Source of the DNA: Bdellovibrionales bacterium
GTDB taxonomy: Bacteria > Bdellovibrionota_C > UBA2361 > SZUA-149
Length of the DNA stretch: 13,338 nucleotides
Reading direction: 5' to 3'
Assembly (NCBI GenBank): GCA_020434415.1
Contig: JAGRAW010000073.1
Span: 1-13,338 of the forward strand
The first letter of the stretch is position 1. Every line of letters begins with the position of its first letter. The translations under genes were made by a program, and so were the position numbers. Positions 1 to 13,338 of this stretch are shown here, piece by piece. The notes beneath the pieces were generated by a model that saw only the letters and a list, made by a program, of their open reading frames with translations, was not told the origin of the DNA and did not search any database.

Positions 1-710
1 CATACGACAAACGCAAACAGAAGATCGCTCGCGCAATGGCTAAAATACTCAATACCTCGGGCCTCTCATGGGGCATTCTCGGCACCGGAGAGCATTGTTC
101 GGGAGACCCGGCCCGCCGCCTAGGTGAAGAGAACCTCTTTCAGAGCGCCGCCAAGGTCAATCTGGAGACTCTCCGTAGTATTCGCTTCGAGAAGCTGGTT
201 GCCAACTGTCCACATTGCTTCAATACGCTTCGCAACGAGTATCCGGCTTTGGGCAACCTCGCGGAGGATCGTTCTGTCGAAGTAATCCACCACAGCATCT
301 TCATCAAATCGCTGTTGGCCGAAGGGCGCCTGTCGGTAGCGAAAGATTTCGATCGTGACCTCACCTACCACGATCCCTGCTATCTAGGCCGTTATAACGA
401 ACACTACGAAGAGCCTCGGGACGTGCTGGTGCAGCTCGGCTCGAAGCCCATCCGTGAAATGCGAGACAATCGCCAAACAGGGCTGTGCTGTGGCGCCGGC
501 GGCGGACACTACTGGTTCGACATGAAAGTCGGTGAGCGTGTCAATTCCCTCCGAGTCGATCAAGCCGCCGAAACAGGTGCTCCGGTTATCGCCACCGGCT
601 GTCCTTTCTGCATGCAGATGCTGGAGGATGGCGTCAAGCTCACAGGACGAGAGGAAACCTTGGCCGTCAAAGATCTCGCCGAGCTTGTTGCCGATGCGCT
701 GATCGAGTAG
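1..710 (+). CDS. C-terminal portion of an Fe-S oxidoreductase with cysteine-rich CCG domains (HdrD/GlcF/LutA-like); the 5' end lies upstream of the window
   Basis: The frame of the 36..710 ORF stays open back to nt 3 (YDKRKQKIARA precedes the first Met), so the gene is truncated by the window edge. The translation has the spacing of two CCG-type cysteine-rich modules: HCSGDP ... NCPHCFNTL ... DPCYLGRY ... GLCCGAGGGHYW ... ATGCPFCMQM. It ends with stop TAG at 708-710. Confidence 0.7.
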   Translation, partial: YDKRKQKIARAMAKILNTSGLSWGILGTGEHCSGDPARRLGEENLFQSAAKVNLETLRSIRFEKLVANCPHCFNTLRNEYPALGNLAEDRSVEVIHHSIFIKSLLAEGRLSVAKDFDRDLTYHDPCYLGRYNEHYEEPRDVLVQLGSKPIREMRDNRQTGLCCGAGGGHYWFDMKVGERVNSLRVDQAAETGAPVIATGCPFCMQMLEDGVKLTGREETLAVKDLAELVADALIE

Positions 711-1873: not shown

Positions 1874-2335
1874 ATGTTCGAGAAGATCAATCAGTTCCTA
1901 GCCGGGACGGCGAGCCTTGGAGTCGAATCCTCGGGACAGCCCACTGCGCGCGACTTGCAGATCGCGACAGCCGCGTTACTGGTCAAGATGGCCTTCGTCG
2001 ACGAGCGGCTGGCGGATGAAGAGATGAAAGCACTCGTCGGCAATCTCAATCGCCAGTTCCATCTCAGCGACACCGAGGCCGGAGATCTGTTGGAAGTCGC
2101 GGACTACCTTCGACGAGACCAGGCGAAACTCTCGGAATTGATCAACCTCATTCATAAACGCTTCGAGGAGGCTCAGCGCATCACCATCGTCGCAATGCTT
2201 TGCCGAGTCATGCACGCCGACGGCGTGGTCACGAAACTCGAAGCGCATCTTGCCAGTGAAGTCGCTCAATCCCTGAAGCTCTCCATCGCGCAGATTGAAG
2301 CGGCGCAGGAAATGGCCGAGACTGGTCAAGTGTGA
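1874..2335 (+). CDS. TerB-family (tellurite-resistance TerB-like) protein, 153 aa
   Basis: The translation is colinear with E. coli TerB as I recall it. N-terminus MFEKINQFLAG matches MSFFDKVKGAL. Two helical repeats each have a conserved acidic/hydrophobic core: IATAALLVKMAFVDERLADEEMKAL and ITIVAMLCRVMHADGVVTKLEAHL ... IAQIEAA. The length is typical for TerB (PF05099). Confidence 0.8.
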   Translation: MFEKINQFLAGTASLGVESSGQPTARDLQIATAALLVKMAFVDERLADEEMKALVGNLNRQFHLSDTEAGDLLEVADYLRRDQAKLSELINLIHKRFEEAQRITIVAMLCRVMHADGVVTKLEAHLASEVAQSLKLSIAQIEAAQEMAETGQV

Positions 2336-2369
2336 GCACCTAACGGCCCAACCACGCAGCTACGCTTTT

Positions 2370-2376
2370 AAGGAGA
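2370..2376 (+). promoter_or_regulatory. Shine-Dalgarno sequence AAGGAGA for the SPFH gene
   Basis: AAGGAGA lies 7 nt upstream of ATG 2384. Confidence 0.55.
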
Positions 2377-2383
2377 CTTTCAC

Positions 2384-3397
2384 ATGATCTTCAACATTCG
2401 AGAACAGCTTCGCTCCGTCATTGAATGGGAAAACGCCAACAAGGCGAACCTTTTCGAGCAATGGACCCGCAACGGCGACGAGATCAAGAACGCTTCGAAG
2501 CTCATCGTAAAGCCCGGCCAAGGCGTCATCTTTGTCTACGAAGGAAAGATCGAAGCCGTTCATCTCGACGAAGGTCTCTACAGTCTCGAAACGGCGAACA
2601 TTCCTTTCCTGACGACAATAACGAAGCTCCTCCAGTATTTCGAGAGTGAGCACAAAGTCGGCCTTTACTATTTTTGGCAGACTCAGTTTATCGATCAGAA
2701 GTGGGGCACCCCGACCACCATCAAGTACGATGATCCGGTCTACGGTTTCCCCGTAGCACTTCGTGCCCACGGTAACTTCAGCTTTCGAATAGACCGTCCG
2801 GAATTTTTCTTCGTCAATGTCGTCGGTGGAGAGCCGTTATTCACGGTTGAACAGGCCCGACGCACGATCGCCGACCGGTTCCTGCAAGAGCTAGGAGATG
2901 TGTTGGCGTCCTCGGGCTACAGCTATGCAGAAGTCGACCGAAATCGGGTCGAACTCGCAGCGCGCTTGACTGAAAGTCTAGCGCCGACCTGCGCCGCTCT
3001 CGGATTCCAACTGACCGACTTCCGAATCGAGGGCACAGACTTCGATGCCGACACCCAGGCGCGGATCGCGAGAATCGCGGATTTGACAGCCGAGGCCGAG
3101 GGAGCACGACGAGCAGGTCTCAGCTATGCCGAGCTCCAACGACTGGAGGCTCTCCGAGAAGCCGCCCGGAACGAAGGTGGGCTTGCAGGTGCCGGTGTCG
3201 GTCTCGGAGCAGGCCTTGGCATCGGACAAGCGTTTACCGCGGGAATGGCGCCGGGACTGCAACCGCCCCAGGCGGCAGCAGCGGCTCCTTTGGATCCGAC
3301 AGCGCGCCTGGCGCAACTCAAAGGCCTGCTTGACTCGAAGCTGATCAGCCAAGAAGAGTTTGATTCCAAGAAAGCGCAAATTCTGGCAGATCTGTAG
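2384..3397 (+). CDS. SPFH/band-7 (stomatin-prohibitin-flotillin-HflKC) domain protein of the COG4260 / Bacillus YdjI type, with a Gly/Ala-rich linker and a C-terminal SHOCT domain
   Basis: The N-terminal 230 aa align by eye with B. subtilis YdjI. VIEWENANKANLFEQWTRNGDEIKNASKLIVKPGQGVIFVYEGKIEAV corresponds to VVEWEEFRDDMIFYKWNNREIKKGSRLIIRPGQDAVFLNNGRVEGV. ETANIPFLTTI corresponds to ESEIIPFLSTL. A low-complexity linker follows: GGLAGAGVGLGAGLGIGQAFTAGMAPGLQPPQAAAAAPLDP (~3175-3295). The C-terminus ARLAQLKGLLDSKLISQEEFDSKKAQILADL (~3305-3394) fits the SHOCT consensus (L.eLk.LldkGlIteEEFe.kKakiL). Confidence 0.85.
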   Translation: MIFNIREQLRSVIEWENANKANLFEQWTRNGDEIKNASKLIVKPGQGVIFVYEGKIEAVHLDEGLYSLETANIPFLTTITKLLQYFESEHKVGLYYFWQTQFIDQKWGTPTTIKYDDPVYGFPVALRAHGNFSFRIDRPEFFFVNVVGGEPLFTVEQARRTIADRFLQELGDVLASSGYSYAEVDRNRVELAARLTESLAPTCAALGFQLTDFRIEGTDFDADTQARIARIADLTAEAEGARRAGLSYAELQRLEALREAARNEGGLAGAGVGLGAGLGIGQAFTAGMAPGLQPPQAAAAAPLDPTARLAQLKGLLDSKLISQEEFDSKKAQILADL

Positions 3398-3483
3398 TGT
3401 GCGATGAGCAAGATTCGCTCGTGCGCGTGCACCGGGTAACAACTCTTCCGAGTGCCTAATCCAAAGGACTTACGCAAGAGCGC

Positions 3484-4098
3484 ATGACCGTCCAGCAATA
3501 CAACTGCCCGACCTGCGGGGCACCGCTTCCTGTCGAGAACCGCTTTTCTCTGCAAGTAATCTGCAGCTACTGCGGCCAGTCCTCTCGGATTACTCCGCAG
3601 GGGCTTGACCCCAGCGGAGAGAAGGCGCTGCTCGCCGACTTCCCTTCTATCTTGTCAATCGGCGCTACAGGAATGCTCCGCGGCACACCGTTTAAAGTGC
3701 TCGGAATGCTTCGGTTCAAGTATGACGGCGGGTTCTGGGATGAATGGTTTCTGGCGCTGGACACCGGCAAAAAGCTTTGGCTGCAAGAAGACGAAGGCGA
3801 GTTCACCGCCTTCGAGAAAGAGCAGTTGACGTCACCGGTGCCGCCCTTCGAGGAAATGCAAGTGGGCTCCCTTGTTCCGGTCAACGGCAAGCAATTTTTC
3901 ATCATGGAAAAACGCCGCGCGGTGCTTGCCGGCGGCCGCGGCGAGCTGACTTTCGTTGTCACTCCCCACAGCGCCGTCGGCTGCGTAGATGGCAACGCCG
4001 GGGGGATCTTGATGAGCATCGAATATCTTCCGGATGAGATCAACCTTTCCTGGGGAGCGGAGGTCCCTCTCGAGGAGCTGCAAGTCGACGCTCCATGA
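3484..4098 (+). CDS. zinc-ribbon + DUF4178-like domain protein (YdjG-like partner of the SPFH protein), 204 aa
   Basis: The N-terminal CPTCGAPL ... CSYCGQ (nt 3505-3516 and 3562-3573) is a CxxC...CxxC zinc ribbon. The remaining ~150 aa (GTPFKVLGMLRFKYDGGFWDEWFLALDTGKKLWLQEDEGEF ...) match my recollection of the DUF4178 family pattern. It sits immediately downstream of the SPFH gene. The stop TGA 4096-4098 overlaps the next ATG (ATGA). Confidence 0.65.
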   Translation: MTVQQYNCPTCGAPLPVENRFSLQVICSYCGQSSRITPQGLDPSGEKALLADFPSILSIGATGMLRGTPFKVLGMLRFKYDGGFWDEWFLALDTGKKLWLQEDEGEFTAFEKEQLTSPVPPFEEMQVGSLVPVNGKQFFIMEKRRAVLAGGRGELTFVVTPHSAVGCVDGNAGGILMSIEYLPDEINLSWGAEVPLEELQVDAP

Positions 4099-5279
4099 GC
4101 GGCAAGTTCAAACCGGAATCGTTTCTCGCGCTGGGAAAAGAGTGTACCTATCGAGACGTCCGCTACCAAATCATCGGTCGGATCTGTAAAGAAGCACAAA
4201 TCAGCGAATGGGATGCTGAAGACCAACGCTACTATGATGAACCCTGGAGTTCCGACCTCTGGGTGTTGGTTGGCGCCCAGAAAGAGTATCTGTACATCAC
4301 GGAGGATCGCGAAGGCTATGCGATCTCGACCGCCTTCACACCCAGTGCTCCGAGCATCCCACCGGAAGATGCAAGAACGATGACGCTGGAGACAGCCACG
4401 CCTCCACGACGAATCTTGGAACGCGGCACTGCCAAAACTGTCTATTTCGAAGGCGAGTTTACCTGGACCCCAGCCATCGGAGACATCGACAAATACTGCG
4501 AGTATGATGCAGGCGGGGTTCGCTACAGCGTCGAATGGAAAGTGTCGCCTGACGGCGCGGGCATCGAAGAGGTCGAGTTTTTCGCGACCCGCCCCATCGG
4601 CAAGCTCGAGCTTGCCGAACTCTTCGGAGAACAGTCGATACTGGATGAAGCTCGCCGAGCGTCTCAGCATAAAGCACAGTACCGACAGTGGTCGGTGCTA
4701 TTCTGGGTGGCCGGAATGATCTCGACGCTCTTCGCTGTCACCGCCCTCTTTCGTGAAGGCACCCTCGTCGATCGCTTCGAAATCGAGATGGCCAAGATTG
4801 CTGACACCGGGCTCATTCGGGGCCCCTTTCAGCTTGATCAGGTGGGCCGGGTCCACGAGCTCGTGCTCAGCACCTCCATCCCCGACAACAGTGAAGCATG
4901 GGGAGCTGCAGAGCTTCTTAACGGTGAACAGGCAGCGATCAATGCGCTGGAGGGAGAATTTTGGCGGGAATCAGGGTATGACTCGGATGGGCACTGGTCA
5001 GAGAGCGACACCACCCATAGCAGGCTCTTCCGCCTCGACCACCCCGGAACCTACTATGTCCGTCTGATGGCCGACGGGGCATCGGCACCTGCGGCAACCC
5101 TGCGCTTCGAATTATACAAAGACGTACCGCTCGCCCGCTGGTATATTCTGACAACCCTGCTTTGCTTCGGGCTAGCGGTCGCGATGGTCAAATATCAGTC
5201 GACGAATCCCCTCTACATTGTCGCTGGGCTTTTCGCCGTCGGATATTTCGTGCTGTCGATGCTTGCCGACGATGATTGA
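4095..5279 (+). CDS. membrane protein with an N-terminal DUF4178-like soluble domain, one central TM helix, a ~125-aa intervening domain and a C-terminal double TM anchor (394 aa)
   Basis: It is translationally coupled to the previous gene through the ATGA at 4095-4098. The N-terminal ~190 aa repeat the pattern of the preceding protein: TYRDVRYQIIGRI ... EWDAED ... YDEPW ... LWVL versus TPFKVLGMLRF ... GGFWDEWFLAL. Hydrophobic segments: WSVLFWVAGMISTLFAVTALF (~nt 4689-4758), and WYILTTLLCFGLAVAMV ... LYIVAGLFAVGYFVLSML (~nt 5130-5265). Confidence 0.6.
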   Translation: MSGKFKPESFLALGKECTYRDVRYQIIGRICKEAQISEWDAEDQRYYDEPWSSDLWVLVGAQKEYLYITEDREGYAISTAFTPSAPSIPPEDARTMTLETATPPRRILERGTAKTVYFEGEFTWTPAIGDIDKYCEYDAGGVRYSVEWKVSPDGAGIEEVEFFATRPIGKLELAELFGEQSILDEARRASQHKAQYRQWSVLFWVAGMISTLFAVTALFREGTLVDRFEIEMAKIADTGLIRGPFQLDQVGRVHELVLSTSIPDNSEAWGAAELLNGEQAAINALEGEFWRESGYDSDGHWSESDTTHSRLFRLDHPGTYYVRLMADGASAPAATLRFELYKDVPLARWYILTTLLCFGLAVAMVKYQSTNPLYIVAGLFAVGYFVLSMLADDD

Positions 5280-5299
5280 CAGATCAAGGTAGGCCACGG

Positions 5300-5533
5300 A
5301 TGACGCCATTTTCGAAATTCTTGATTGCAACACTTGCCGGATCGGCACTGTTGCTTCCGTATTTTGCGTCGTCTCGCGGGTGGGGAGTCGGCTCAGAGCG
5401 AAACGCCGGCATCGCGGCGCTCGCTGCCCAGGACTGCCTCCGAAAGGATGCTGCCGGCCGCTGTATCGCCGGTCATCGAAGCTATTTTCGGCGCCGCAAT
5501 TACATCGGGGGCGGCATGCGCTCCGGCAAGTGA
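5300..5533 (+). CDS. possible small (77-aa) signal-peptide-bearing protein in the repeat-rich spacer; very tentative
   Basis: ATG 5300 is preceded by AAGGTAGG (5285-5292) at a 7-nt spacing. The translation is MTPFSKFLIATLAGSALLLPYFASS|RGWG..., which has a signal-peptide shape. The mature part is Gly/Arg-rich with 2 Cys. Codon usage is not clearly like the neighbouring genes, and it could be spurious. Confidence 0.2.
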   Translation: MTPFSKFLIATLAGSALLLPYFASSRGWGVGSERNAGIAALAAQDCLRKDAAGRCIAGHRSYFRRRNYIGGGMRSGK

Positions 5534-5535
5534 AC

Positions 5536-5565
5536 GGCACGCAGTGACCTCGCACGCAGTGACCT
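5536..5565. repeat. 15-bp tandem direct repeat x2 (sGCACGCAGTGACCT)
   Basis: ggcacgcagtgacct / cgcacgcagtgacct, read directly at 5536-5550 and 5551-5565. Confidence 0.9.
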
Positions 5566-5588
5566 GTCGAGGAGGGACCTATATGCAT

Positions 5589-5621
5589 GAAAAGCAGACC
5601 ATATACAGGAAAAGCAGACCA
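5589..5621. repeat. 13-bp direct repeat GAAAAGCAGACCA x2 with 20-bp periodicity
   Basis: gaaaagcagacca at 5589-5601 and again at 5609-5621. Confidence 0.9.
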
Positions 5622-5622
5622 C

Positions 5623-5667
5623 GCAATGAAGCGCGGGGCAATGAAGCGCGGGGCAATGAAGCGCGGG
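5623..5667. repeat. perfect 15-bp tandem direct repeat x3 (GCAATGAAGCGCGGG)
   Basis: gcaatgaagcgcggg occurs three times head-to-tail at 5623-5637, 5638-5652 and 5653-5667. It lies 44 bp upstream of the DUF350 start codon. Confidence 0.95.
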
Positions 5668-5695
5668 CTGAACAAGTCTTTGGCAATGACCACAC

Positions 5696-5700
5696 GGAGG
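5696..5700 (+). promoter_or_regulatory. Shine-Dalgarno sequence GGAGG for the DUF350 gene
   Basis: GGAGG lies 10 nt upstream of ATG 5711. Confidence 0.5.
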
Positions 5701-5710
5701 AACACCATCC

Positions 5711-5938
5711 ATGCATTCAACGTTTACCGGTAACCCTGTTGTAGACGGCGTCCTCGCCACGATACTCTATAGCGGCATCGGCATCTTGATGGCCTTCATC
5801 GCGTTCAAAGTCGTAGACATGATAACGCCTGGTGACCTTGGCAAGGCGATTTCCGAGAATAATCTGGCCATGGCAGTACTTGCCGGGTGCAGCATTCTCG
5901 GCATCAGCATCATTATTGCCGCGGCAATTGTCGGCTAG
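5711..5938 (+). CDS. DUF350 family small membrane protein (75 aa, two TM helices)
   Basis: MHSTFTGNPVVDGVLATILYSGIGILMAFIAFKVVDMITPGDLGKAISENNLAMAVLAGCSILGISIIIAAAIVG. The size, two hydrophobic helices, the central ITPxDL-E motif and the N-AVA-L-G-IL-AIII-AAI tail are as I remember DUF350 (PF03994). Confidence 0.75.
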   Translation: MHSTFTGNPVVDGVLATILYSGIGILMAFIAFKVVDMITPGDLGKAISENNLAMAVLAGCSILGISIIIAAAIVG

Positions 5939-6056
5939 GTCGCCGGAACTACCTCTCGCCAGTCCGGCAGCATCAAAGGCCGCGGCTGCCGGTGCGCTCT
6001 CCGGGCTCGGGCGACGCTGTCACACGGTTCTCGCCCGACGAAAAAGCGCCTAAGCA

Positions 6057-7622
6057 ATGTCCGAACTATCGCAGCATTCTCCGGCCGAAGCGCTTGAGTC
6101 CGCGGCCCGCCCGGCAACCAGCCGGGAAATTGCGGTGCTCGGCACGGCCATTCTCATTACCTCCGTTTGCGCCATCGTCTACGAACTGCTGGTAAGCACC
6201 CTTTCCTCGTATCTCCTCGGCAGCAGCGTCCTACATTTTTCTCTGACCATCGGACTCTTCATGACGTTCATGGGTGTGGGTGCCTTCTGGTCGAAGTTCA
6301 TCGACACCCGATTGCTCGACTGGTTCATCTTCATCGAACAATTGGTCGGCCTCATCGGCGGCTGCGCCGCGTTTCTTCTCTATCTCAGCTTCAGCCTGAC
6401 CGAGTACTACTACCTGGTAGCGTTTCTGCTGATTGCGGCAATATCGACCTGCGTCGGCTTGGAGATCCCGCTTGTCACGCGAGAGCTACGGAAACATCGC
6501 GAACTAAAAGATGCCTTGGCCAATATTCTGGCCATCGACTACCTGGGGGCGCTGATCGCCTCGATTCTGTTTCCGATCGTGCTAGTCCCCTACCTAGGAC
6601 TAATGCGTACCGCGTTTCTGATGGGAATGCTGAACGTGGGAACGGCAATAGCTACGGCGGTGGTGTTCCGAACGCGACTGACTTTTTTTCGCTTTCATCT
6701 TACCCTGGGTCTGAGCTTTCTTGTCGTGCTCGGCAGCGGGTTCCTATATTCCTTTCACTTGATCGGTTTCTATGAGCAAAATCTCTATCAAGACGAGATC
6801 ATTCACTCCGAGCAGAGTAGCTATCAGCGCATCATTCTAACCCGCTTCGACGACGATATCCGCCTCTATCTCAACGGAAGTCTGCAATTCAGCACGATTG
6901 ACGAGTATCGTTACCACGAGACACTGACGCATATCCCGCTCGGTGTTGTCCCCAACCGGGAGAACATCCTGATTCTGGGCGGGGGTGACGGACTCGCCGC
7001 ACGAGAAGCCTTGAAGTATCCTGATGTGCAGTCGATAACGCTCGTCGATATCGATGAACGTATGACCACGCTTGCGGCGGAGCACCCGATTTTGCGGAAA
7101 CTGAACGCAGAGTCACTCTCGGCGGCGCGGGTGAAGGTAATAAATCAGGATGCCTGGGAGTTTCTTGCAACCGATCCTTCGCTCTACTCCGCAATTATCA
7201 TCGACTTGCCCGATCCGGACGATTTTGCGGTCGGCAAGCTGTATACACAGGAGTTCTACCGGCTTGCGAAGCGACGACTCGCCGCCGACGGTGTGTTGAT
7301 AACTCAGGCGTCATCACCGTTTTTTGCACGAGAACCCTTCTGGTGTATTCACCACACGCTCGAAGCGGTGTTCAGCCACGTCCAACCACTGACGCTTTAT
7401 GTCCCTTCCTTCGGTCCCTGGGGATTCCACCTAGCCTCCGGTCGTAAATTTGACGTAAGCGACGTCAAGTTAGTCGTACCCACTCGCTTCCTGAACGCGG
7501 TAACGCTCGAAAGCGTTTTCACCGTAGCACCCGATGAGGGTGAGGTTTCGACGGAGCTAAACCGACTCGACAATCAACATCTGGTAACTCTCTACGAGCA
7601 AAGCCTGGATGACTGGAACTAA
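6057..7622 (+). CDS. speE: membrane-anchored polyamine aminopropyltransferase (spermidine/spermine-synthase family) with an N-terminal ~7-TM domain, 521 aa
   Basis: The C-terminal half carries the spermidine-synthase signatures: ILILGGGDGLAAREALKYPDVQSITLVDIDERM (GGGDG ~6978-6992), IIDLPDPDD (~7199-7222) and GKLYTQEFY. The N-terminal 230 aa are a run of hydrophobic helices (ILITSVCAIVYELLV ... LTIGLFMTFMGVGAFW ... LVGLIGGCAAFLLYL ... YLVAFLLIAAISTCVGL ... LGALIASILFPIVLVPY ... GMLNVGTAIATAVVF ... GLSFLVVLGSGFLY). This is the same architecture as the large TM-fused SpeE proteins that follow DUF350 genes in other bacteria. Confidence 0.85.
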   Translation: MSELSQHSPAEALESAARPATSREIAVLGTAILITSVCAIVYELLVSTLSSYLLGSSVLHFSLTIGLFMTFMGVGAFWSKFIDTRLLDWFIFIEQLVGLIGGCAAFLLYLSFSLTEYYYLVAFLLIAAISTCVGLEIPLVTRELRKHRELKDALANILAIDYLGALIASILFPIVLVPYLGLMRTAFLMGMLNVGTAIATAVVFRTRLTFFRFHLTLGLSFLVVLGSGFLYSFHLIGFYEQNLYQDEIIHSEQSSYQRIILTRFDDDIRLYLNGSLQFSTIDEYRYHETLTHIPLGVVPNRENILILGGGDGLAAREALKYPDVQSITLVDIDERMTTLAAEHPILRKLNAESLSAARVKVINQDAWEFLATDPSLYSAIIIDLPDPDDFAVGKLYTQEFYRLAKRRLAADGVLITQASSPFFAREPFWCIHHTLEAVFSHVQPLTLYVPSFGPWGFHLASGRKFDVSDVKLVVPTRFLNAVTLESVFTVAPDEGEVSTELNRLDNQHLVTLYEQSLDDWN

Positions 7623-7680: not shown

Positions 7681-8997
7681 TTGTCCGCGAGTGCTCGCAT
7701 TCTCTGTATTGGCGATGTCCACCTCGGTCGCGCTCCGACGCGCCTGCGTCTGGACAACGAGTGGTATGAAGGTCTTGGCCCTCGAGAAGCCCTGCGCCGG
7801 GCGGCTCGAGAGGCAATCGAACTGCAAGTCGATGTGGTCGTCTGCACCGGTGATGTCATCGACCAATCAAACGCCTTCTTCGAGGCTCATCGGGTGCTTC
7901 GAACCGTCGCAGGACAACTGACTGAAGCGGGCATTCCGTTCGTAGCGATAAGCGGCAATCACGACTACGAATCCTTACCCGAATGCCAAAAGCAGGTACC
8001 AGGGCTCACCATCCTTGGTCGGAACGGCAGTTGGGAAGAATTCGTCATTGTGCGTGACGGGACGCCCCTGCTTCGACTGCTTGGTCGGTCGTTTACCGAC
8101 CGCTATCAAAAGACCAATCCCCTGGAGGGCTTCGACCTTCCTGCAGACGGCGTTCCCAGCGTCGGACTTCTGCACTGCGATGTGGACGTTCCCGACAGCC
8201 CGTATGCTCCAGTCGATCTGAGAAGCCTTTTAGCGACCGCCCCGTCCGCCTGGCTCCTAGGCCATGTACATAAACCGCAACTTCTTTCCACACGACCTCT
8301 CATCTTGTATCCCGGTAGCTTGCAGGGCCTTGATCCGGGCGAGCCGGGAGTCCGCGGACCCTGGCTAGTCGAGGTCTCCGCCGACGGTCAAACCACCGCC
8401 AACCAACTGCCGCTGGCTCCTGTGCGCTACGAGCGGCTCGAGGTAGCAATCGACGATCTCGAGTCGATCGAGCAAGTCAGTGGTGCAATCGCGGAAGCGG
8501 TAAGTTCGTGGAGAACGATCAATTCCGCGGAGCTTCGACTGACACGCTTCGTGTCGCTGCGGTTGGTGTTGACCGGCAGTACGACCCTACAGCAATCTCT
8601 CGCTGTCCTTGCAGCTCGGCTCACGAGTCAAAGAGAGCGCTTCGACGACGACGAACCGTACATCGTCATCGACAAGGTACTGATCGAGTGCAGCCCCCGA
8701 ATCGACCTTGCGACATTGGCAAGAAGTAACGATGTTCCCGGCTTGTTGGCGAAGCGGTTGTTGGTACTGAAAAACCAAAATCCGCATGAGGCATACCGTT
8801 CCCTGATCGAACAAGCAGGCGCAAAGTTGGCGAACGTGCATGCCGATCCGCTCTTTTCTGATATCGCAAAAGACCGGGCACTAAGTGAAGTCGCTATCCG
8901 TGACACGCTTATTCGTGCAGGCACCGTTGCGCTTCATACTCTGCTTGCCCAACAAACTCCCGCCGTCGACCATCCGTCGCCTGAGAATTCCGGATGA
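7681..8997 (+). CDS. Mre11/SbcD-type calcineurin-like metallophosphoesterase (DNA repair exonuclease family; B. subtilis YhaO-like), 438 aa, apparent TTG start
   Basis: Phosphoesterase motifs are in canonical order: GDVHLG (7711-7728), GDVIDQ, GNHD (7954-7965), HCDVDV, GHVH (8260-8271). A ~200-aa C-terminal extension follows the catalytic core. The stop TGA 8995-8997 overlaps ATG 8994 of the next gene. Confidence 0.8.
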   Translation: MSASARILCIGDVHLGRAPTRLRLDNEWYEGLGPREALRRAAREAIELQVDVVVCTGDVIDQSNAFFEAHRVLRTVAGQLTEAGIPFVAISGNHDYESLPECQKQVPGLTILGRNGSWEEFVIVRDGTPLLRLLGRSFTDRYQKTNPLEGFDLPADGVPSVGLLHCDVDVPDSPYAPVDLRSLLATAPSAWLLGHVHKPQLLSTRPLILYPGSLQGLDPGEPGVRGPWLVEVSADGQTTANQLPLAPVRYERLEVAIDDLESIEQVSGAIAEAVSSWRTINSAELRLTRFVSLRLVLTGSTTLQQSLAVLAARLTSQRERFDDDEPYIVIDKVLIECSPRIDLATLARSNDVPGLLAKRLLVLKNQNPHEAYRSLIEQAGAKLANVHADPLFSDIAKDRALSEVAIRDTLIRAGTVALHTLLAQQTPAVDHPSPENSG

Positions 8998-11900
8998 AGC
9001 TTCAAAAACTGCACATTAGACGCATGCCGGGAGTTTCCGACTTCGAGCTCTCCGATCTCGCCACCGGCGTCACTGTCGTCACCGGACCGAACGGGTCCGG
9101 GAAGACAACCGCCTGCCGAGCCATACGCGGATTGCTCTGGCCGGAGGAGCTCCGCAACGTCGTCTTTCCTGAACTCGAAAGCACGTGGCTTCTTGACGAC
9201 GGTCGAACCGCCACGCTGAGTGTTTCCGGAGCAGACCGCCGCTGCTACATTGAGGGAAGCGTGCAGGAGTCCCTCTCCCTACCTCCCTCCCACCTCGCGT
9301 CATGTTATACCATCACGATTGATGACTTATTCGCGGACAACGATGCCGAACTCGCCCGTGAGGTCGAGCGGGAACTGTCGGGCGGGTTTGATCTTGCTGC
9401 AGTGATGCAGGCGGAGGCGCTGCAGGTAAAGCGCACACGTATACGAGACGCCGTACGGCACATCCAGCAACTTTCGCTCCGCGTCAGAGAACTGCAGTCG
9501 GCGCAGCGTGCACTACACCTCAAACGCGAAAAGCTCGCTGAGATGGAGACGCGAGCGAGCGAAGCCAGACGCGCGCAAACCCGCCTAGCTCGAATAGATG
9601 ACGCACTTCGCCACAACACAGTACTGCGTGATCTTGAAGCACTTCGTTCGCGACACACGCAGTTTCAACCGGCAGTAGCTCGTATCTGCGGCGGAGAAAG
9701 ACGTGAGCTCGAGCGTCTCCAAAGTGAAAGTATTGAACGTCGGCAGGAGGCCGCAAGCGCGGCGGAAGCTCTAGAGCAAGCCGCAGAGCGGCTTGCAACG
9801 ACAGGAACAACCTTTGCCGACTTAGCGCTGCGAGACCAGCTACACTGTCGCGACCAGATCGAAACGCTTCGAGCTCTTCAAGCAGACATCGAGCAGCGCG
9901 AAGCTCATATCGAGGGATTACTGACCACGTGCCGTTCTCTGCAGCGGAAGCTCGGAGGTCTAGGGAATCCCGCCTCGTTGGCGTTGCTCGAGCCTCAAGA
10001 GCTCGAGGAGATCGAACAGTTCCAGCGACTCGTAGAAAGCCACGAAGCGAAGGTCTTACAGCTGCGCACACAACTGCAGATTGCCGAAACCGAGCTAGGT
10101 TCCGGGCCCCTGCCTGCGTCGGAAGAACTACGCGAACAGATTCGCCTACTCGAACAGTGGCTCGCGCTTGACAGTACGCACCGCATCGCGACCGTTCGCA
10201 CGCTGGTGGCAGCGGGCAGCGTTGCTGCCGTTGTAGCAATCGTGACAACTCTCTTCCTTGCAACCGACGGTTTTCGCGCGAACAACAGTGACCCGCTCTG
10301 GTTTACAGCCACGGCAATTTCGTTAGGAACGCTGCTCTTCTTACTCTTCGCCGCGCGCGGCGATGCTCGCCGAAAGCGAGCACTGGAGGAGGAGTTCCTC
10401 AGCCGCTACCAACCGCAGGCGGTTCCCTTCGAAGCGCCCTACGTCAGATCCACGATCAGTTCCTTACTTGAAACATACGAGCAAAGCCGTCGTGTGGAGC
10501 ACGCGGAACAAACGGCGAAAGACGTCCGAACCCTTTTGAAGGGTATGGAAACAGAGGAAGCTCGAATCCAACGAACCCAGGGTCTACTCGCTGAGCGCTT
10601 GGGGTGCGCCCCGAGCGCCTCCACACTGACGTTAGTCGCCTTTGCGTCTTCCCTTCGCGATTTCCAACAAAGCTACCAAGCTCTCGAAGCTTCGAACGCG
10701 GAACTGGAACACCGAATCGAGGAACGAAATCGCATCCTCGGAGCGGTCAATCGCTTCTTCGGACAGTTTTCCGTACCGGAAGTAGCGTCTGGAGCGGCGG
10801 CGAGTGCCTCGTATGCCGAACTCGAGGTTCGTGCCGCACAGGGAAGAACGGCGACGCAAGAGCACAAGCTCGCGCAGGCGGCCGTAGAACGAGCACAAGC
10901 AGCCCTCGAGCGAATAGATGCGGCGCGAAAGGCTTTTTTTGAGCGCTTCGATTTACCCGACGACGCGGACGCTGCTTTCGAAACGCTGATGTCCGATTTC
11001 GAAGCATTCGAACAGTCGAAACTCAAGATTCAAGAACTCGAACGGGAACGCGTCTCCATCGTCGACCGCCTGGAAAGGGATGCGCCTGACCTACTACAAC
11101 TATCTGAGGACGAACTAATCGTCGAGCAACTGGAGGCGCACCAACTCGGCGAACAAGCGGATGCGCTTTGGTCTACTGTGGTCGAGACGCGCCTTCTGAT
11201 CGGGCAAGCGGAACAAGAGACGGTGCTCGAAGAAGCACTTCGTGATCTTGAAGAGTCCCGCGCTGCACTTGCGGAATACCACGAGCAGACGCTTCTAGCA
11301 GGTGCTGCCGATGTGCTGCTCGCTACCGTAGTGAACGAACACGAGAGCACCCGCCTGCCCGCAGTACTGCTTAGAGCGAACGAGCTGTTCGAACGCTTTA
11401 CCCACCAGCGCTACGGTTTGCTCCGCGCGGAACAAGGGGAGCGAGAACCGACGTTTCGTGCTCGAGACCTTGCGACCGGAGCGGTGGTCTCGCTGGAAAG
11501 TCTTTCGCGAGGCACACGATCGCAGCTTCTGCTCGCGGCACGAGTCGCTTTTGCTGAGCATCAAGAGCGGCGGGAGCGACTACCTTTCGTCCTCGACGAA
11601 GTTCTCAGCAGCACCGACCCTCAGCGGTTCCAGCGTGTCGCGGAAGCCCTATTCGCACTCGCCGCAGACGGACGTCAGCTTTTGTATTTCAGTTGCCAGC
11701 CCTATGATGCAGAGCAGTGGGCACTTGCGGCGTCAGCAAACCCTGCTGTTGCCGTGCGCTTTCTCGAGTTGACTCACAGTGGACGAGCGTCTACGGCGCC
11801 CGCACCCCTTGCCGCCCAGGCCATTGCACGGCTCGAAAGTGCAGTCGAAGCCCCGAACGGACGCTCCATTAGCGCCTACATCGAAGCGCTACGTCTCCCA

Positions 11901-12551
11901 CCTCTCAAAGTGTTACAAGGAGCAGAGGCTGCTCATCTGGGCCACCTGGTTACCGATCCGGAGCTGCTTTACCGGCTACTGAGTACCGGTCTTCATCGCT
12001 TTGGACAGCTTCGCCGTCTTATCGCAGCAAATGCTTCCGCTGGCTATATTGGCGAAGCTGATCGGGCCCAAGTCGAAGCGCGTGCTAAACTTATCGATCG
12101 CCTCTGCGCCGATGCCCGGATTGGACGAGCGAAGGTCCTTTCGACGGAGGCACTTCTTTCGTTTGTGAGTACGAGTAAACGGCTCGAACAGGAGCTGGTC
12201 CAGCTTACTACTACCCTGGGCGGCGATGCCACACTGCTGCTTCAGCTGATCGATCCCGCTCGCCCGGGAGGATCGCTGATTCCCGGCTTTCGTAAAAATA
12301 CCTTCGAGAAGCTACGCGAGCGTCTAATCGAGGAAGGATACGTCGCTTTCGAAGCACGGTTGCCCCGGGAAGAAACGTGGTTACGCTTTCTCGCCCATGC
12401 CGAACCCGCAGTTACATCCGGGATTCTCGATCCTGGGGAGGTCAGCGCATTTTTCGCACTGCTGTGGGACACCATTCCGCAAGCTCCGTCGGAAGTGGTA
12501 CCGCCGGCCTCAGCGCAGGAGCTTTCCAATGTCGCACAAGCGGGACGCTAA
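8994..12551 (+). CDS. SMC-like Rad50/SbcC-family ATPase (B. subtilis YhaN/SbcE-like), 1185 aa, with a two-helix transmembrane hairpin inserted in the coiled-coil arm
   Basis: Walker A GPNGSGKTT (9084-9110). Long heptad-like, Arg/Glu/Leu/Gln-rich coiled-coil halves (aa ~140-395 and ~460-900). ABC signature-like SLSRGTRSQLLLAARVAF (11499-11522) precedes Walker B/D-loop FVLDEVLSSTD (11586-11618). Mid-protein hydrophobic hairpin: TLVAAGSVAAVVAIVTTLFLA - TDGFRANNSDPLW - FTATAISLGTLLFLLFAA, followed by RGDARRKRA (nt ~10199-10355). Confidence 0.8.
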   Translation: MKLQKLHIRRMPGVSDFELSDLATGVTVVTGPNGSGKTTACRAIRGLLWPEELRNVVFPELESTWLLDDGRTATLSVSGADRRCYIEGSVQESLSLPPSHLASCYTITIDDLFADNDAELAREVERELSGGFDLAAVMQAEALQVKRTRIRDAVRHIQQLSLRVRELQSAQRALHLKREKLAEMETRASEARRAQTRLARIDDALRHNTVLRDLEALRSRHTQFQPAVARICGGERRELERLQSESIERRQEAASAAEALEQAAERLATTGTTFADLALRDQLHCRDQIETLRALQADIEQREAHIEGLLTTCRSLQRKLGGLGNPASLALLEPQELEEIEQFQRLVESHEAKVLQLRTQLQIAETELGSGPLPASEELREQIRLLEQWLALDSTHRIATVRTLVAAGSVAAVVAIVTTLFLATDGFRANNSDPLWFTATAISLGTLLFLLFAARGDARRKRALEEEFLSRYQPQAVPFEAPYVRSTISSLLETYEQSRRVEHAEQTAKDVRTLLKGMETEEARIQRTQGLLAERLGCAPSASTLTLVAFASSLRDFQQSYQALEASNAELEHRIEERNRILGAVNRFFGQFSVPEVASGAAASASYAELEVRAAQGRTATQEHKLAQAAVERAQAALERIDAARKAFFERFDLPDDADAAFETLMSDFEAFEQSKLKIQELERERVSIVDRLERDAPDLLQLSEDELIVEQLEAHQLGEQADALWSTVVETRLLIGQAEQETVLEEALRDLEESRAALAEYHEQTLLAGAADVLLATVVNEHESTRLPAVLLRANELFERFTHQRYGLLRAEQGEREPTFRARDLATGAVVSLESLSRGTRSQLLLAARVAFAEHQERRERLPFVLDEVLSSTDPQRFQRVAEALFALAADGRQLLYFSCQPYDAEQWALAASANPAVAVRFLELTHSGRASTAPAPLAAQAIARLESAVEAPNGRSISAYIEALRLPPLKVLQGAEAAHLGHLVTDPELLYRLLSTGLHRFGQLRRLIAANASAGYIGEADRAQVEARAKLIDRLCADARIGRAKVLSTEALLSFVSTSKRLEQELVQLTTTLGGDATLLLQLIDPARPGGSLIPGFRKNTFEKLRERLIEEGYVAFEARLPREETWLRFLAHAEPAVTSGILDPGEVSAFFALLWDTIPQAPSEVVPPASAQELSNVAQAGR

Positions 12552-12643: not shown

Positions 12644-13300
12644 CTAGCGACCGACAGAGATCGGATCACTAGCCGGAAACGAGTCTTCCAGCGCCTGGTC
12701 AAGCTTTTCGTTCAATGCTTTTCGCTCAGCCTTCGATGCACCACTTCCGCCTCGTTCATCCACTTTTTCAGGCGAATTTGCCTGTTCGTACAGGTGCTTC
12801 GTCTCACCAGCACCCGGCCCCGTTTGATCGACCGGCCTTTGATCAGCAGTAAATTGATCAACAGTAAATTGATCAGCATGGCGCGGCACCATAAAGGCGT
12901 CGATCATTGCATGTGCAGCGATCAAAGGGGCGATCCATTCGCTATGGGCTACGAAGTCGCCATCAACGAGCAAAGCGTGGTCACCTGTCGTGTCACATAT
13001 CACTATATACCACTCACTCGCAGCGCCTTCGTGTGCAAGGTCACCTAGCTCAATTCGAAAGCGACCAGGCAACGCCTGCACTCTTTGCTCATCAAGCAAC
13101 GACGGGGAATCAATCAGCGTCTGACGCCGCGGCTCCAGATTGCTGGTCGACAATATGCCCCCGGCCAGCACCTGCTCCTGCACGGCCTCAGGCACCTGGC
13201 GCACCCACGAAGGCATTTCCGTGTTTTGACGAGCAAGGTGTCCCCATTGAAGGAGCATAATTCGCTCCAAGCGGTCTCTCGGTATGATCGGTAGCTTCAT
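12644..13300 (-). CDS. hypothetical protein; the reading frame stays open to the window edge at 13338, so the true start may lie outside the window
   Basis: The 219-codon ORF is convergent with the SMC-like gene. Upstream of ATG 13300-13298, codons continue without a stop (IVISDDEANTGL-MKLPIIP). The N-terminal part looks globular (EWYIVICDTTGDHALLVDGDFVAHSEWIAPLIAAHAMIDAF). The C-terminal part is low-complexity and charged (GPGAGETKHLYEQANSPEKVDERGGSGASKAERKALNEKLDQALEDS). I recognised no family. Confidence 0.4.
   Translation of the reverse strand: MKLPIIPRDRLERIMLLQWGHLARQNTEMPSWVRQVPEAVQEQVLAGGILSTSNLEPRRQTLIDSPSLLDEQRVQALPGRFRIELGDLAHEGAASEWYIVICDTTGDHALLVDGDFVAHSEWIAPLIAAHAMIDAFMVPRHADQFTVDQFTADQRPVDQTGPGAGETKHLYEQANSPEKVDERGGSGASKAERKALNEKLDQALEDSFPASDPISVGR
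12841..12878. repeat. 15-bp tandem repeat x2.5 (GATCAGCAGTAAATT / GATCAACAGTAAATT / GATCAGCA) with recurring TTGATC(A) cores, inside the minus-strand ORF
   Basis: Read directly. Two more TTGATC copies lie at 12823-12828 and 12839-12844. On the - strand the repeat is in frame and encodes (A)DQFTVDQFTADQ. Confidence 0.85.
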
Positions 13301-13338
13301 CAAGCCAGTATTGGCTTCGTCATCGGAAATTACTATGA

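Follow-up and report, generated by a model that had tools for sequence, protein, structure and literature searches.

The 13,338-nucleotide (nt) contig JAGRAW010000073.1 of a Bdellovibrionales bacterium (assembly GCA_020434415.1), analyzed here over its whole length and called the window below, carries at positions 8994-12551 an open reading frame (ORF) whose product is, as judged from its sequence, a Rad50/SbcC/SMC-type ATP-binding cassette (ABC) ATPase with two predicted transmembrane (TM) helices and no zinc hook at the tip of its coiled coil. The hairpin geometry is a trait of the whole YhaN/SbcE-type family, which is already known and barely characterized, and not a peculiarity of the window gene; the window ATPase itself belongs to a large, undescribed subfamily distinguished by an additional C-terminal domain. 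Together with the gene that precedes it (7681-8997), the ATPase gene probably constitutes a self-contained two-gene module for a membrane-tethered SbcF/SbcE (YhaO/YhaN)-type complex resembling Mre11/Rad50 (Table 1). In the literature that we searched, no paper presents the hairpin of YhaN/SbcE-type proteins as a membrane anchor and none names a transmembrane Rad50-like protein.

The window ATPase is identical in sequence to the NCBI entry 'MAG: AAA family ATPase [Bdellovibrionales bacterium]' (MAG, metagenome-assembled genome). Its nucleotide-binding motifs lie where a preliminary description of this DNA had placed them, with Walker A (GPNGSGKTT) at amino acids (aa) 31-39 (nt 9084-9110), the signature SLSRGTRSQ at aa 836-844 (nt 11499-11525) and Walker B (FVLDEVLSSTD) at aa 865-875 (nt 11586-11618). 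Across 55 aligned sequences, the Walker A residues G31, N33, G36 and K37 are invariant, as are L837, S838, D868 and D875 of the D-loop, and E869 is present in 52 of the 55 homologues. Pfam returned weak, head-level matches only (AAA_23, 28.3 bits; AAA_27, 21.6 bits; SMC_N), and sequence searches of NCBIfam, PADLOC and the PDB matched only the P-loop region. An AlphaFold2 model built on the 55 homologues (mean predicted local distance difference test score, pLDDT, 80.6) consists of an N-terminal lobe of mixed alpha/beta structure (aa 1-146), helical stretches at aa 147-391 and 481-802, a C-terminal lobe (aa 803-935) and a well-predicted helical domain that extends to about aa 1165. Searched with Foldseek, the whole model matched condensin, Rad50, Smc5/6, MukB and JetC with E values of 2e-14 to 1e-8, which bears out the Rad50/SbcC-like assignment made earlier from the letters of the DNA. 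About 850 aa of coiled-coil-type sequence had been described between the motif blocks; the helical arms are indeed there, together spanning aa 147-802 (~655 aa), whereas the distance itself is closer to 800 aa. In a crude heptad test, periodicity was found in both arms and in neither head lobe, with 27% of N-terminal arm windows above the 95th percentile of shuffles vs. 0% in the head. Because the ABC head is assembled from both termini, the chain must reverse between the lobes. The two lobes would form one head and the intervening helices an antiparallel arm of about 35 nm (245 residues at ~0.15 nm each).

The sequence between the arms bears neither of the two familiar apex modules: none of the nine cysteines of the window ATPase is arranged as CxxC and no Pfam match to SMC_hinge was obtained, as the preliminary description had also noted, and the protein center is occupied by a hydrophobic hairpin. 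The two hydrophobic helices and the basic patch after them that had been reported near the midpoint were recovered (aa 401-423, 435-454 and 455-463); the loop between the helices, given as 13 aa, measures 11. The TM assignment is based on hydrophobicity scales, segment length, charge distribution and conservation, and insertion energies were approximated with the position-independent Hessa scale. Helix 1 reaches a Kyte-Doolittle 19-mer maximum of 2.43 and an approximate Hessa sum of -0.95 kcal/mol, helix 2 reaches 1.94 and -1.09, and the best window elsewhere in the protein has an approximate insertion energy of +4.85. Because the window ATPase is rich in Ala and Leu, a single hydrophobic 19-mer is unremarkable: a Kyte-Doolittle value of 1.94 was reached by 35% of shuffled sequences and 2.43 by 3.5%. 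The single-window shuffle was therefore not significant as a test of chance, and a two-window test and family conservation were used instead. Two 19-mers of -0.95 kcal/mol or below within 70 aa of each other occurred in none of 3000 shuffles. Six Lys/Arg residues lie within the 21 aa beyond helix 2, and the flanks fit the positive-inside rule. The polar loop of 11 residues argues for a fully spanning hairpin in the window ATPase.

Conservation across relatives provides the decisive evidence that the predicted hairpin exceeds chance. The hydrophobic peak (aa ~400-450) was found in 54 of the 55 database homologues, which share 22-32% identity, and in all 80 loci of species-representative genomes, at a relative position of 0.35-0.38 where the ORF was correctly delimited. 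A charge-free span occupies the same aligned place in 134 of 135 relatives; its median length is 46 aa and its median number of charged residues zero. A normal zinc hook at this position in homologues had been named in advance as a refuting outcome; none of the 135 relatives has one, nor does any carry a CxxC at or near the hairpin. The aligned block has a constant order, namely an 'LRxWL' motif (W389 in 54 of 55 sequences), helix 1, a tight turn, helix 2, basic residues (family median of 4 Lys/Arg in the 15 aa of the C-flank) and a second conserved Trp motif, with which the C-terminal arm opens (position W479, V484, L491). At aa 479 (nt 10428-10430), Trp is found in 54 of 55 homologues and Phe in the window ATPase, the sole exception in the alignment. 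The turn is commonly of the Asn/Ser-Pro-Trp ('NPW') type, with Pro in 36 of 55, and most homologues are more tightly turned than the window ATPase.

A hydrophobic pair of this kind could alternatively lie outside the membrane, as the buried core of a soluble, hinge-like dimerization domain at the arm tip. Low AlphaFold2 confidence at the hairpin and a second segment that is marginal in many homologues are compatible with a soluble core, as is the account of Krishnamurthy et al., who report for SbcE only a novel insoluble central domain and dynamic SbcE-YFP foci, some of them at the nucleoid (PMC2811018). However, a ~46-aa span with a median of zero charged residues, Kyte-Doolittle values of up to 3.4 in Bacillus YhaN, negative insertion energies, a basic C-flank and aromatic residues at the helix ends all point to the membrane. 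Across the relatives the hydrophobic character is conserved and the sequence is not, as is usual for helices that face lipid and unlike the cores of soluble hinges, and the staphylococcal orthologue is a predicted membrane protein (PMC7137321). Burial in a soluble domain is, in our estimation, quite improbable.

The membrane hairpin is shared with proteins of the YhaN/SbcE family. Two close homologues are labelled 'uncharacterized protein YhaN' by the Joint Genome Institute, and a more distant match (P0059), from a Pirellulales group with the UniRef name 'YhaN AAA domain-containing protein', matches AAA_27 with 51 bits. The comparison with YhaN suggested in the preliminary description placed the hairpins in register: hhalign aligned the window group with the Pirellulales YhaN group at a probability of 100% and an E value of 1e-45; the 877 aligned columns begin at the N-terminus, stop where the head ends and leave out the C-terminal domain, which the two groups do not share. 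The Pirellulales proteins have ~70 extra residues aligned just ahead of helix 1, which appear to have been lost in the window subfamily. Against a single Bacillus YhaN sequence, hhalign gave 97.8% and an E value of 8e-13 for the C-terminal lobe only. A homologue search with P0059 returned close Pirellulales relatives and no Firmicutes, and tblastn with the same query led to chromosome-sized Bacillus and Listeria records filed as plasmids. Both records, NZ_CP093325.1 (Bacillus sp., 5.52 Mb) and NZ_CP030101.1 (Listeria monocytogenes, 2.90 Mb), carry the label 'plasmid'. Their loci are yhaO-yhaN-yhaM, encoding a Metallophos protein, an AAA_27 protein (95 or 82 bits) and an OB+HD protein. YhaN of Bacillus sp. 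N5-665 (974 aa) has two very hydrophobic central helices at aa 466-484 and 488-506 (Kyte-Doolittle 2.66 and 3.36; approximate insertion energies -2.8 and -5.9), halfway from Walker A (aa 29) to the signature (aa 888), and no CxxC, in agreement with the earlier suggestion that YhaN is predicted to be membrane-associated. In UniProt, B. subtilis YhaN is classed as a multi-pass membrane protein. The translated ORF of Listeria YhaN likewise has a hydrophobic stretch at its center, of which the rigid two-window scan scored the first helix only.

In B. subtilis, SbcE has been described as having a unique and conserved central domain whose first half is hydrophobic and which contains a conserved proline, lacks CxxC and is insoluble when expressed; the protein interacts with SbcF, takes part in transformation and in the repair of double-strand breaks, and gathers in foci at the competence pole (PMC2811018). 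Within the family, this repair or transformation role and the contact with the nuclease are known for B. subtilis only. The yhaONM operon belongs to the LexA regulon (PMC2731908), and YhaN of S. haemolyticus is a predicted membrane protein that was recovered by surface shaving (PMC7137321). The window module resembles B. subtilis SbcE/SbcF (YhaN/YhaO; AAA_27/COG4717) in the Mre11-like phosphoesterase gene directly upstream of a long SMC-like ATPase gene and in the central hydrophobic hairpin with its turn proline between two long helical arms, without CxxC. It differs in its shorter N-terminal arm, in an H-loop Gln where Bacillus YhaN has His ('FFTCHAH'), and in the ~250-aa C-terminal domain, which Firmicutes YhaN proteins, with 52-61 residues from the start of Walker B, lack. 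The downstream yhaM-like gene and the LexA box are traits of the Firmicutes operon that were not found at the window locus; the yhaM operon and SOS (LexA) control may not be defining for the family.

Several observations weigh against the interpretation as a membrane-spanning member of this family. Membrane insertion and topology of the hairpin are predictions from sequence features, and the helix pair (aa 395-425 and 435-471) is modelled at a pLDDT of 50-60. The second segment is short or marginal in many homologues (family median approximate energy +2.8 in a rigid 19-residue window), and in these the hairpin could be re-entrant rather than fully spanning. The AAA_27 (PF13514) match of the window ATPase, at 21.6 bits, falls below the cut-off of 22 and covers profile positions 1-51 of 206, vs. 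full coverage and 95, 82 and 51 bits in the Bacillus, Listeria and Pirellulales proteins; a precomputed Pfam list does contain PF13514 for the window ATPase and most homologues. At the H-loop position, aa 902 (nt 11697-11699), the window ATPase has Gln, and among 55 homologues the equivalent residue is Gln 42 times, Asp 9 times and His once, the switch His being retained in Bacillus and Pirellulales YhaN. With Gln or Asp in place of this His, ATP hydrolysis may be atypical, slow or differently regulated. Flanking-ORF scans and ORF clustering yielded no context gene that indicates a specific pathway. Finally, the arms are unequal, with ~245 aa preceding the hairpin vs. ~330 aa after it, and because they differ by ~85 aa, part of the C-terminal arm must pack in another way.

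This inequality, along with several helix breaks in the model, would also suit a hairpin that is a lateral membrane-binding insertion in one arm, with the true reversal elsewhere (e.g., at the helix break around aa 537-543) and the arm lying along the membrane. Yet in Bacillus YhaN the hairpin (aa 466-506) sits almost exactly midway, so that the arms are nearly equal, and the ~70 residues ahead of helix 1 in Pirellulales were apparently lost in the window subfamily. Two antiparallel helices with a turn of 3-11 aa are, moreover, a chain reversal already. We consider a lateral insertion improbable and continue with the hairpin as the putative apex.

The second component of the module is a nuclease gene with a TTG start preceded by AAGAGG, and its stop overlaps the start of the ATPase gene (ATGA). 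The product matches Pfam Metallophos (4e-13), TIGR00619 sbcd (7e-10) and the T. maritima Mre11/SbcD chains (1e-7), and the residues D12, H14, D58, N93-H94, H165, H195 and H197 are invariant or nearly so among 73 partner proteins. Of 86 loci, 78 have a homologue of the nuclease gene directly upstream of the ATPase gene, in most cases overlapping it by 4 nt. All-against-all clustering of ORFs from the 86 loci revealed no third conserved gene, only the two genes and antisense shadow ORFs, and the 117 nearest flanking ORFs in 80 genomes, scanned with Pfam and PADLOC, included no recurrent partner among 125 Pfam families and very few defense matches. In the complete genome of Salinibaculum litoreum (CP046866.1, upstream of 5980), the sole complete-genome locus without an upstream nuclease homologue, the ORF upstream of the ATPase matches a DDE transposase faintly (E 0.02), for which reason an insertion may have displaced the partner gene. 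The Pirellulales partner (L004:6687-7931, + strand, upstream of P0059) is Mre11-like (BLASTP E 2e-5 to the window nuclease) and has lost its catalytic motifs, with SSDWRL for GDVHLG, AGEILD for GDVID, GGIAD for GNHD and GGRVR for GHVH. In this clade the partner of the membrane-anchored ATPase is apparently inactive as a nuclease.

The ~285 aa beyond the ATPase head (aa ~900-1185) include a domain of ~250 aa, overlooked in the preliminary description, that is modelled at a pLDDT of ~90 and gave no Pfam match and no meaningful PDB sequence match. Its structural matches are weak, the best being DNA-binding modules of the helix-hairpin-helix (HhH) type, and it probably binds DNA. Searched as a profile against 1.84 billion proteins, the domain retrieved 1985 representatives at E <= 1e-3, 1461 of them at E <= 1e-30. 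Among the best 150 matches it is always C-terminal, in full-length proteins of ~1150 aa or in shorter, fragment-like ones, and therefore marks one large subfamily. At least 553 species genomes carry the subfamily, which forms ~1500-2000 clusters at 50% identity and extends over Planctomycetota, Bdellovibrionota, Myxococcota and other Deltaproteobacteria, Bacteroidota, Verrucomicrobiota, Chloroflexota, Gemmatimonadota, Acidobacteriota, Gammaproteobacteria, Rhodothermota and Halobacteria. A search of a phage collection found no relatives.

The domain and the partner also bear on whether the module acts on DNA at all. A membrane-organizing coiled-coil ATPase with a phosphoesterase of other substrate could be imagined from the membrane-stress-type genes upstream in the window lineage and from the Pirellulales partner without catalytic motifs. 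That synteny, however, is confined to three related genomes, and the window partner matches SbcD/Mre11 specifically, including the region past the catalytic core, with all catalytic residues kept. The C-terminal domain resembles DNA-binding modules, and B. subtilis genetics link the family to DNA repair (PMC2811018, PMC2731908). A role apart from DNA therefore strikes us as highly improbable.

For a DNA-acting complex, we propose that the chain reverses at the arm tip by means of two antiparallel TM helices and a short turn at the sequence midpoint, with the head and both flanks in the cytoplasm and the short loop in the periplasm. The hairpin would thereby anchor the complex in the inner membrane, suspended from its inner face. 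Hairpins of two subunits would probably pack against each other in the bilayer and replace the hook as a constitutive apex dimerizer, to whose interface the conserved Trp motifs beside the membrane could add, as could the part of the C-terminal arm left unpaired. Because the ATPase and nuclease motifs are intact, the B. subtilis genetics point to repair and the C-terminal domain is HhH-like, the complex would be expected to process DNA ends or hairpins close to the membrane in an ATP-dependent manner: head, nuclease and HhH-like domain would act on membrane-near DNA, with ends or hairpins as the likeliest substrates, in repair or in the handling of incoming DNA. More tentatively, and as one possibility among others, the module may be a widespread Mre11/Rad50 paralogue in which the two TM hairpins form an intramembrane four-helix bundle as the 'hook', a sentinel for free DNA ends at the inner membrane face that processes breaks close to the membrane or DNA arriving across the envelope by transformation, conjugation or phage injection, with the HhH-like domain as an extra grip on DNA.

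Comparison with other systems sets the proposed complex apart. With SbcCD/Mre11-Rad50 it shares an ABC head whose Walker A, signature and Walker B/D-loop are split between the termini and a nuclease with Mre11 motifs I-V that is encoded immediately upstream and translationally coupled; its helical arms, with their heptad periodicity and with full-length Foldseek matches of the model to SMC and Rad50, would likewise form a long antiparallel coiled coil. In contrast, the apex of SbcCD/Mre11-Rad50 is a CxxC zinc hook and that of the window ATPase a hydrophobic hairpin; sequence similarity is confined to the P-loop region, and the window ATPase has the extra C-terminal domain. SMC proteins, MukB and JetC resemble it in overall architecture and fold (Foldseek E 2e-14 to 1e-8), but have a hinge domain and kleisin/KITE partners, which the window module lacks, its partner being a Mre11-type nuclease. 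The defense proteins Lamassu LmuB, PARIS AriA, Gabija GajA and Septu PtuA show a weak likeness in the N-terminal P-loop (E 1e-7 to 1e-3) that covers only ~50 residues; they have other effector partners, and none is represented by a model with a central TM hairpin in PADLOC v2. No full-length component match was obtained from PADLOC v2, in which the ATPase had only these N-terminal matches of ~50 residues and the nuclease had none.

Genomic context could nevertheless be taken to indicate a module for anti-invader defense, in which the tethered nuclease intercepts linear ends of phage, plasmid or transforming DNA at the envelope. The distribution is patchy over many bacterial phyla and haloarchaea, suggesting horizontal transfer, copies occur on haloarchaeal megaplasmids, the Salinibacter ruber copy lies amid PglZ, Gabija-like, reverse transcriptase, toxin-antitoxin and integrase genes, and B. 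subtilis SbcE gathers at the DNA-uptake pole (PMC2811018). On the other hand, the PADLOC matches of the ATPase are generic and at P-loop level, with none for the nuclease, the neighbors in 80 genomes are heterogeneous with very few defense matches, there is no phage-encoded relative in the collection searched, and deletion of sbcE in B. subtilis reduces rather than raises transformation (PMC2811018). A dedicated defense function thus seems rather unlikely, and the context data slightly favor a housekeeping or accessory repair role over that of a defense-island gene.

Contexts vary from genome to genome, with AddAB-like and PafBC-like genes in one, haloarchaeal megaplasmids, and housekeeping genes elsewhere. 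In Salinibacter ruber (NCQX01000015.1, 1-23543) the pair is situated inside a mobile/defense-type island with PglZ, an SNF2 helicase, an OLD-family ATPase-TOPRIM and UvrD helicase (Gabija-like), a reverse transcriptase, a helix-turn-helix-peptidase M78 gene, PemK and MqsA-like toxin-antitoxin genes, an integrase and a transposase. In the window, a run of membrane-stress-type genes (1874-7622, + strand) immediately precedes the nuclease gene in the same orientation, and no obvious terminator separates the two. This TerB/SPFH/DUF4178/spermidine-synthase arrangement recurs only in two related MAGs, L034 (Bdellovibrionales) and L012; because the synteny is confined to these, a link of the module to the cluster was treated as lineage-specific. 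Scans of the window for promoters and terminators were uninformative, and the LexA-box patterns TTACN3GTAA and CTGTN8ACAG gave no hits or chance-level numbers. Of the remaining ORFs, the one at 36-710 (+) encodes two CCG cysteine-rich domains, and those at 749-1591 (-; 280 aa) and, downstream of the module and on the opposite strand to it, 12644-13303 (219 aa) are without a Pfam or NCBIfam match.

Table 1 Positions of the two-gene module, of the parts of the window ATPase and of the genes upstream of the module.
Feature	Position (nt)	Strand	Basis or remark
Mre11/SbcD-type (YhaO/SbcF-like) metallophosphoesterase, 438 aa	7681-8997	+	Pfam, TIGR00619, motifs, gene pairing
SMC-like ABC ATPase, 1185 aa	8994-12551	+	AlphaFold2 model, Foldseek, motifs
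N-terminal head lobe, aa 1-146 (Walker A nt 9084-9110)	8994-9431	+	mixed beta/alpha fold, pLDDT >90
N-terminal helical arm, aa 147-391, ending at juxtamembrane motif L386..W389 ('LRxWL')	9432-10166	+	model helices, heptads
Predicted TM helix 1, aa 401-423, VRTLVAAGSVAAVVAIVTTLFLA	10194-10262	+	hydrophobicity, Hessa, conservation
Polar loop TDGFRANNSDP, aa 424-434, turn proline P434; predicted periplasmic	10263-10295	+	
Predicted TM helix 2, aa 435-454, LWFTATAISLGTLLFLLFAA	10296-10355	+	Kyte-Doolittle, Hessa
Basic patch RGDARRKRA, aa 455-463; predicted cytoplasmic side	10356-10382	+	
C-terminal helical arm, aa 472-802	10407-11399	+	model, heptads, conserved motif at start
C-terminal head lobe, aa 803-935 (signature, Walker B, catalytic Glu, D-loop, H-loop position)	11400-11798	+	
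Linker and subfamily-specific helical C-terminal domain (folded part ~aa 950-1165)	11799-12548	+	probably DNA-binding
TerB	1874-2335	+	
SPFH/Band_7_1 with SHOCT tail	2384-3397	+	
Two DUF4178 proteins, first with zinc-ribbon-like N-terminus	3484-4098, 4095-5279	+	
Membrane-fused polyamine aminopropyltransferase (spermidine synthase), 521 aa	6057-7622	+	PRK03612 576 bits

In the Rad50/SMC field, the coiled-coil apex, be it hook or hinge, is regarded as a soluble dimerization module, and a hook-for-hinge swap reportedly works (PMC6969161). A membrane hairpin would be a third solution for the apex, conserved over Firmicutes YhaN/SbcE, the YhaN-like proteins of Planctomycetes and a large uncharacterized subfamily. 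It may account for the 'unique insoluble central domain' noted for SbcE in 2009 (PMC2811018) and yields testable hypotheses for the location of SbcE at the competence pole. A membrane tether of this kind predicts that the nuclease would act only within ~35 nm of the membrane, and the subfamily is carried by cultured members of genetically tractable genera, e.g., Haloferax and Salinibacter.

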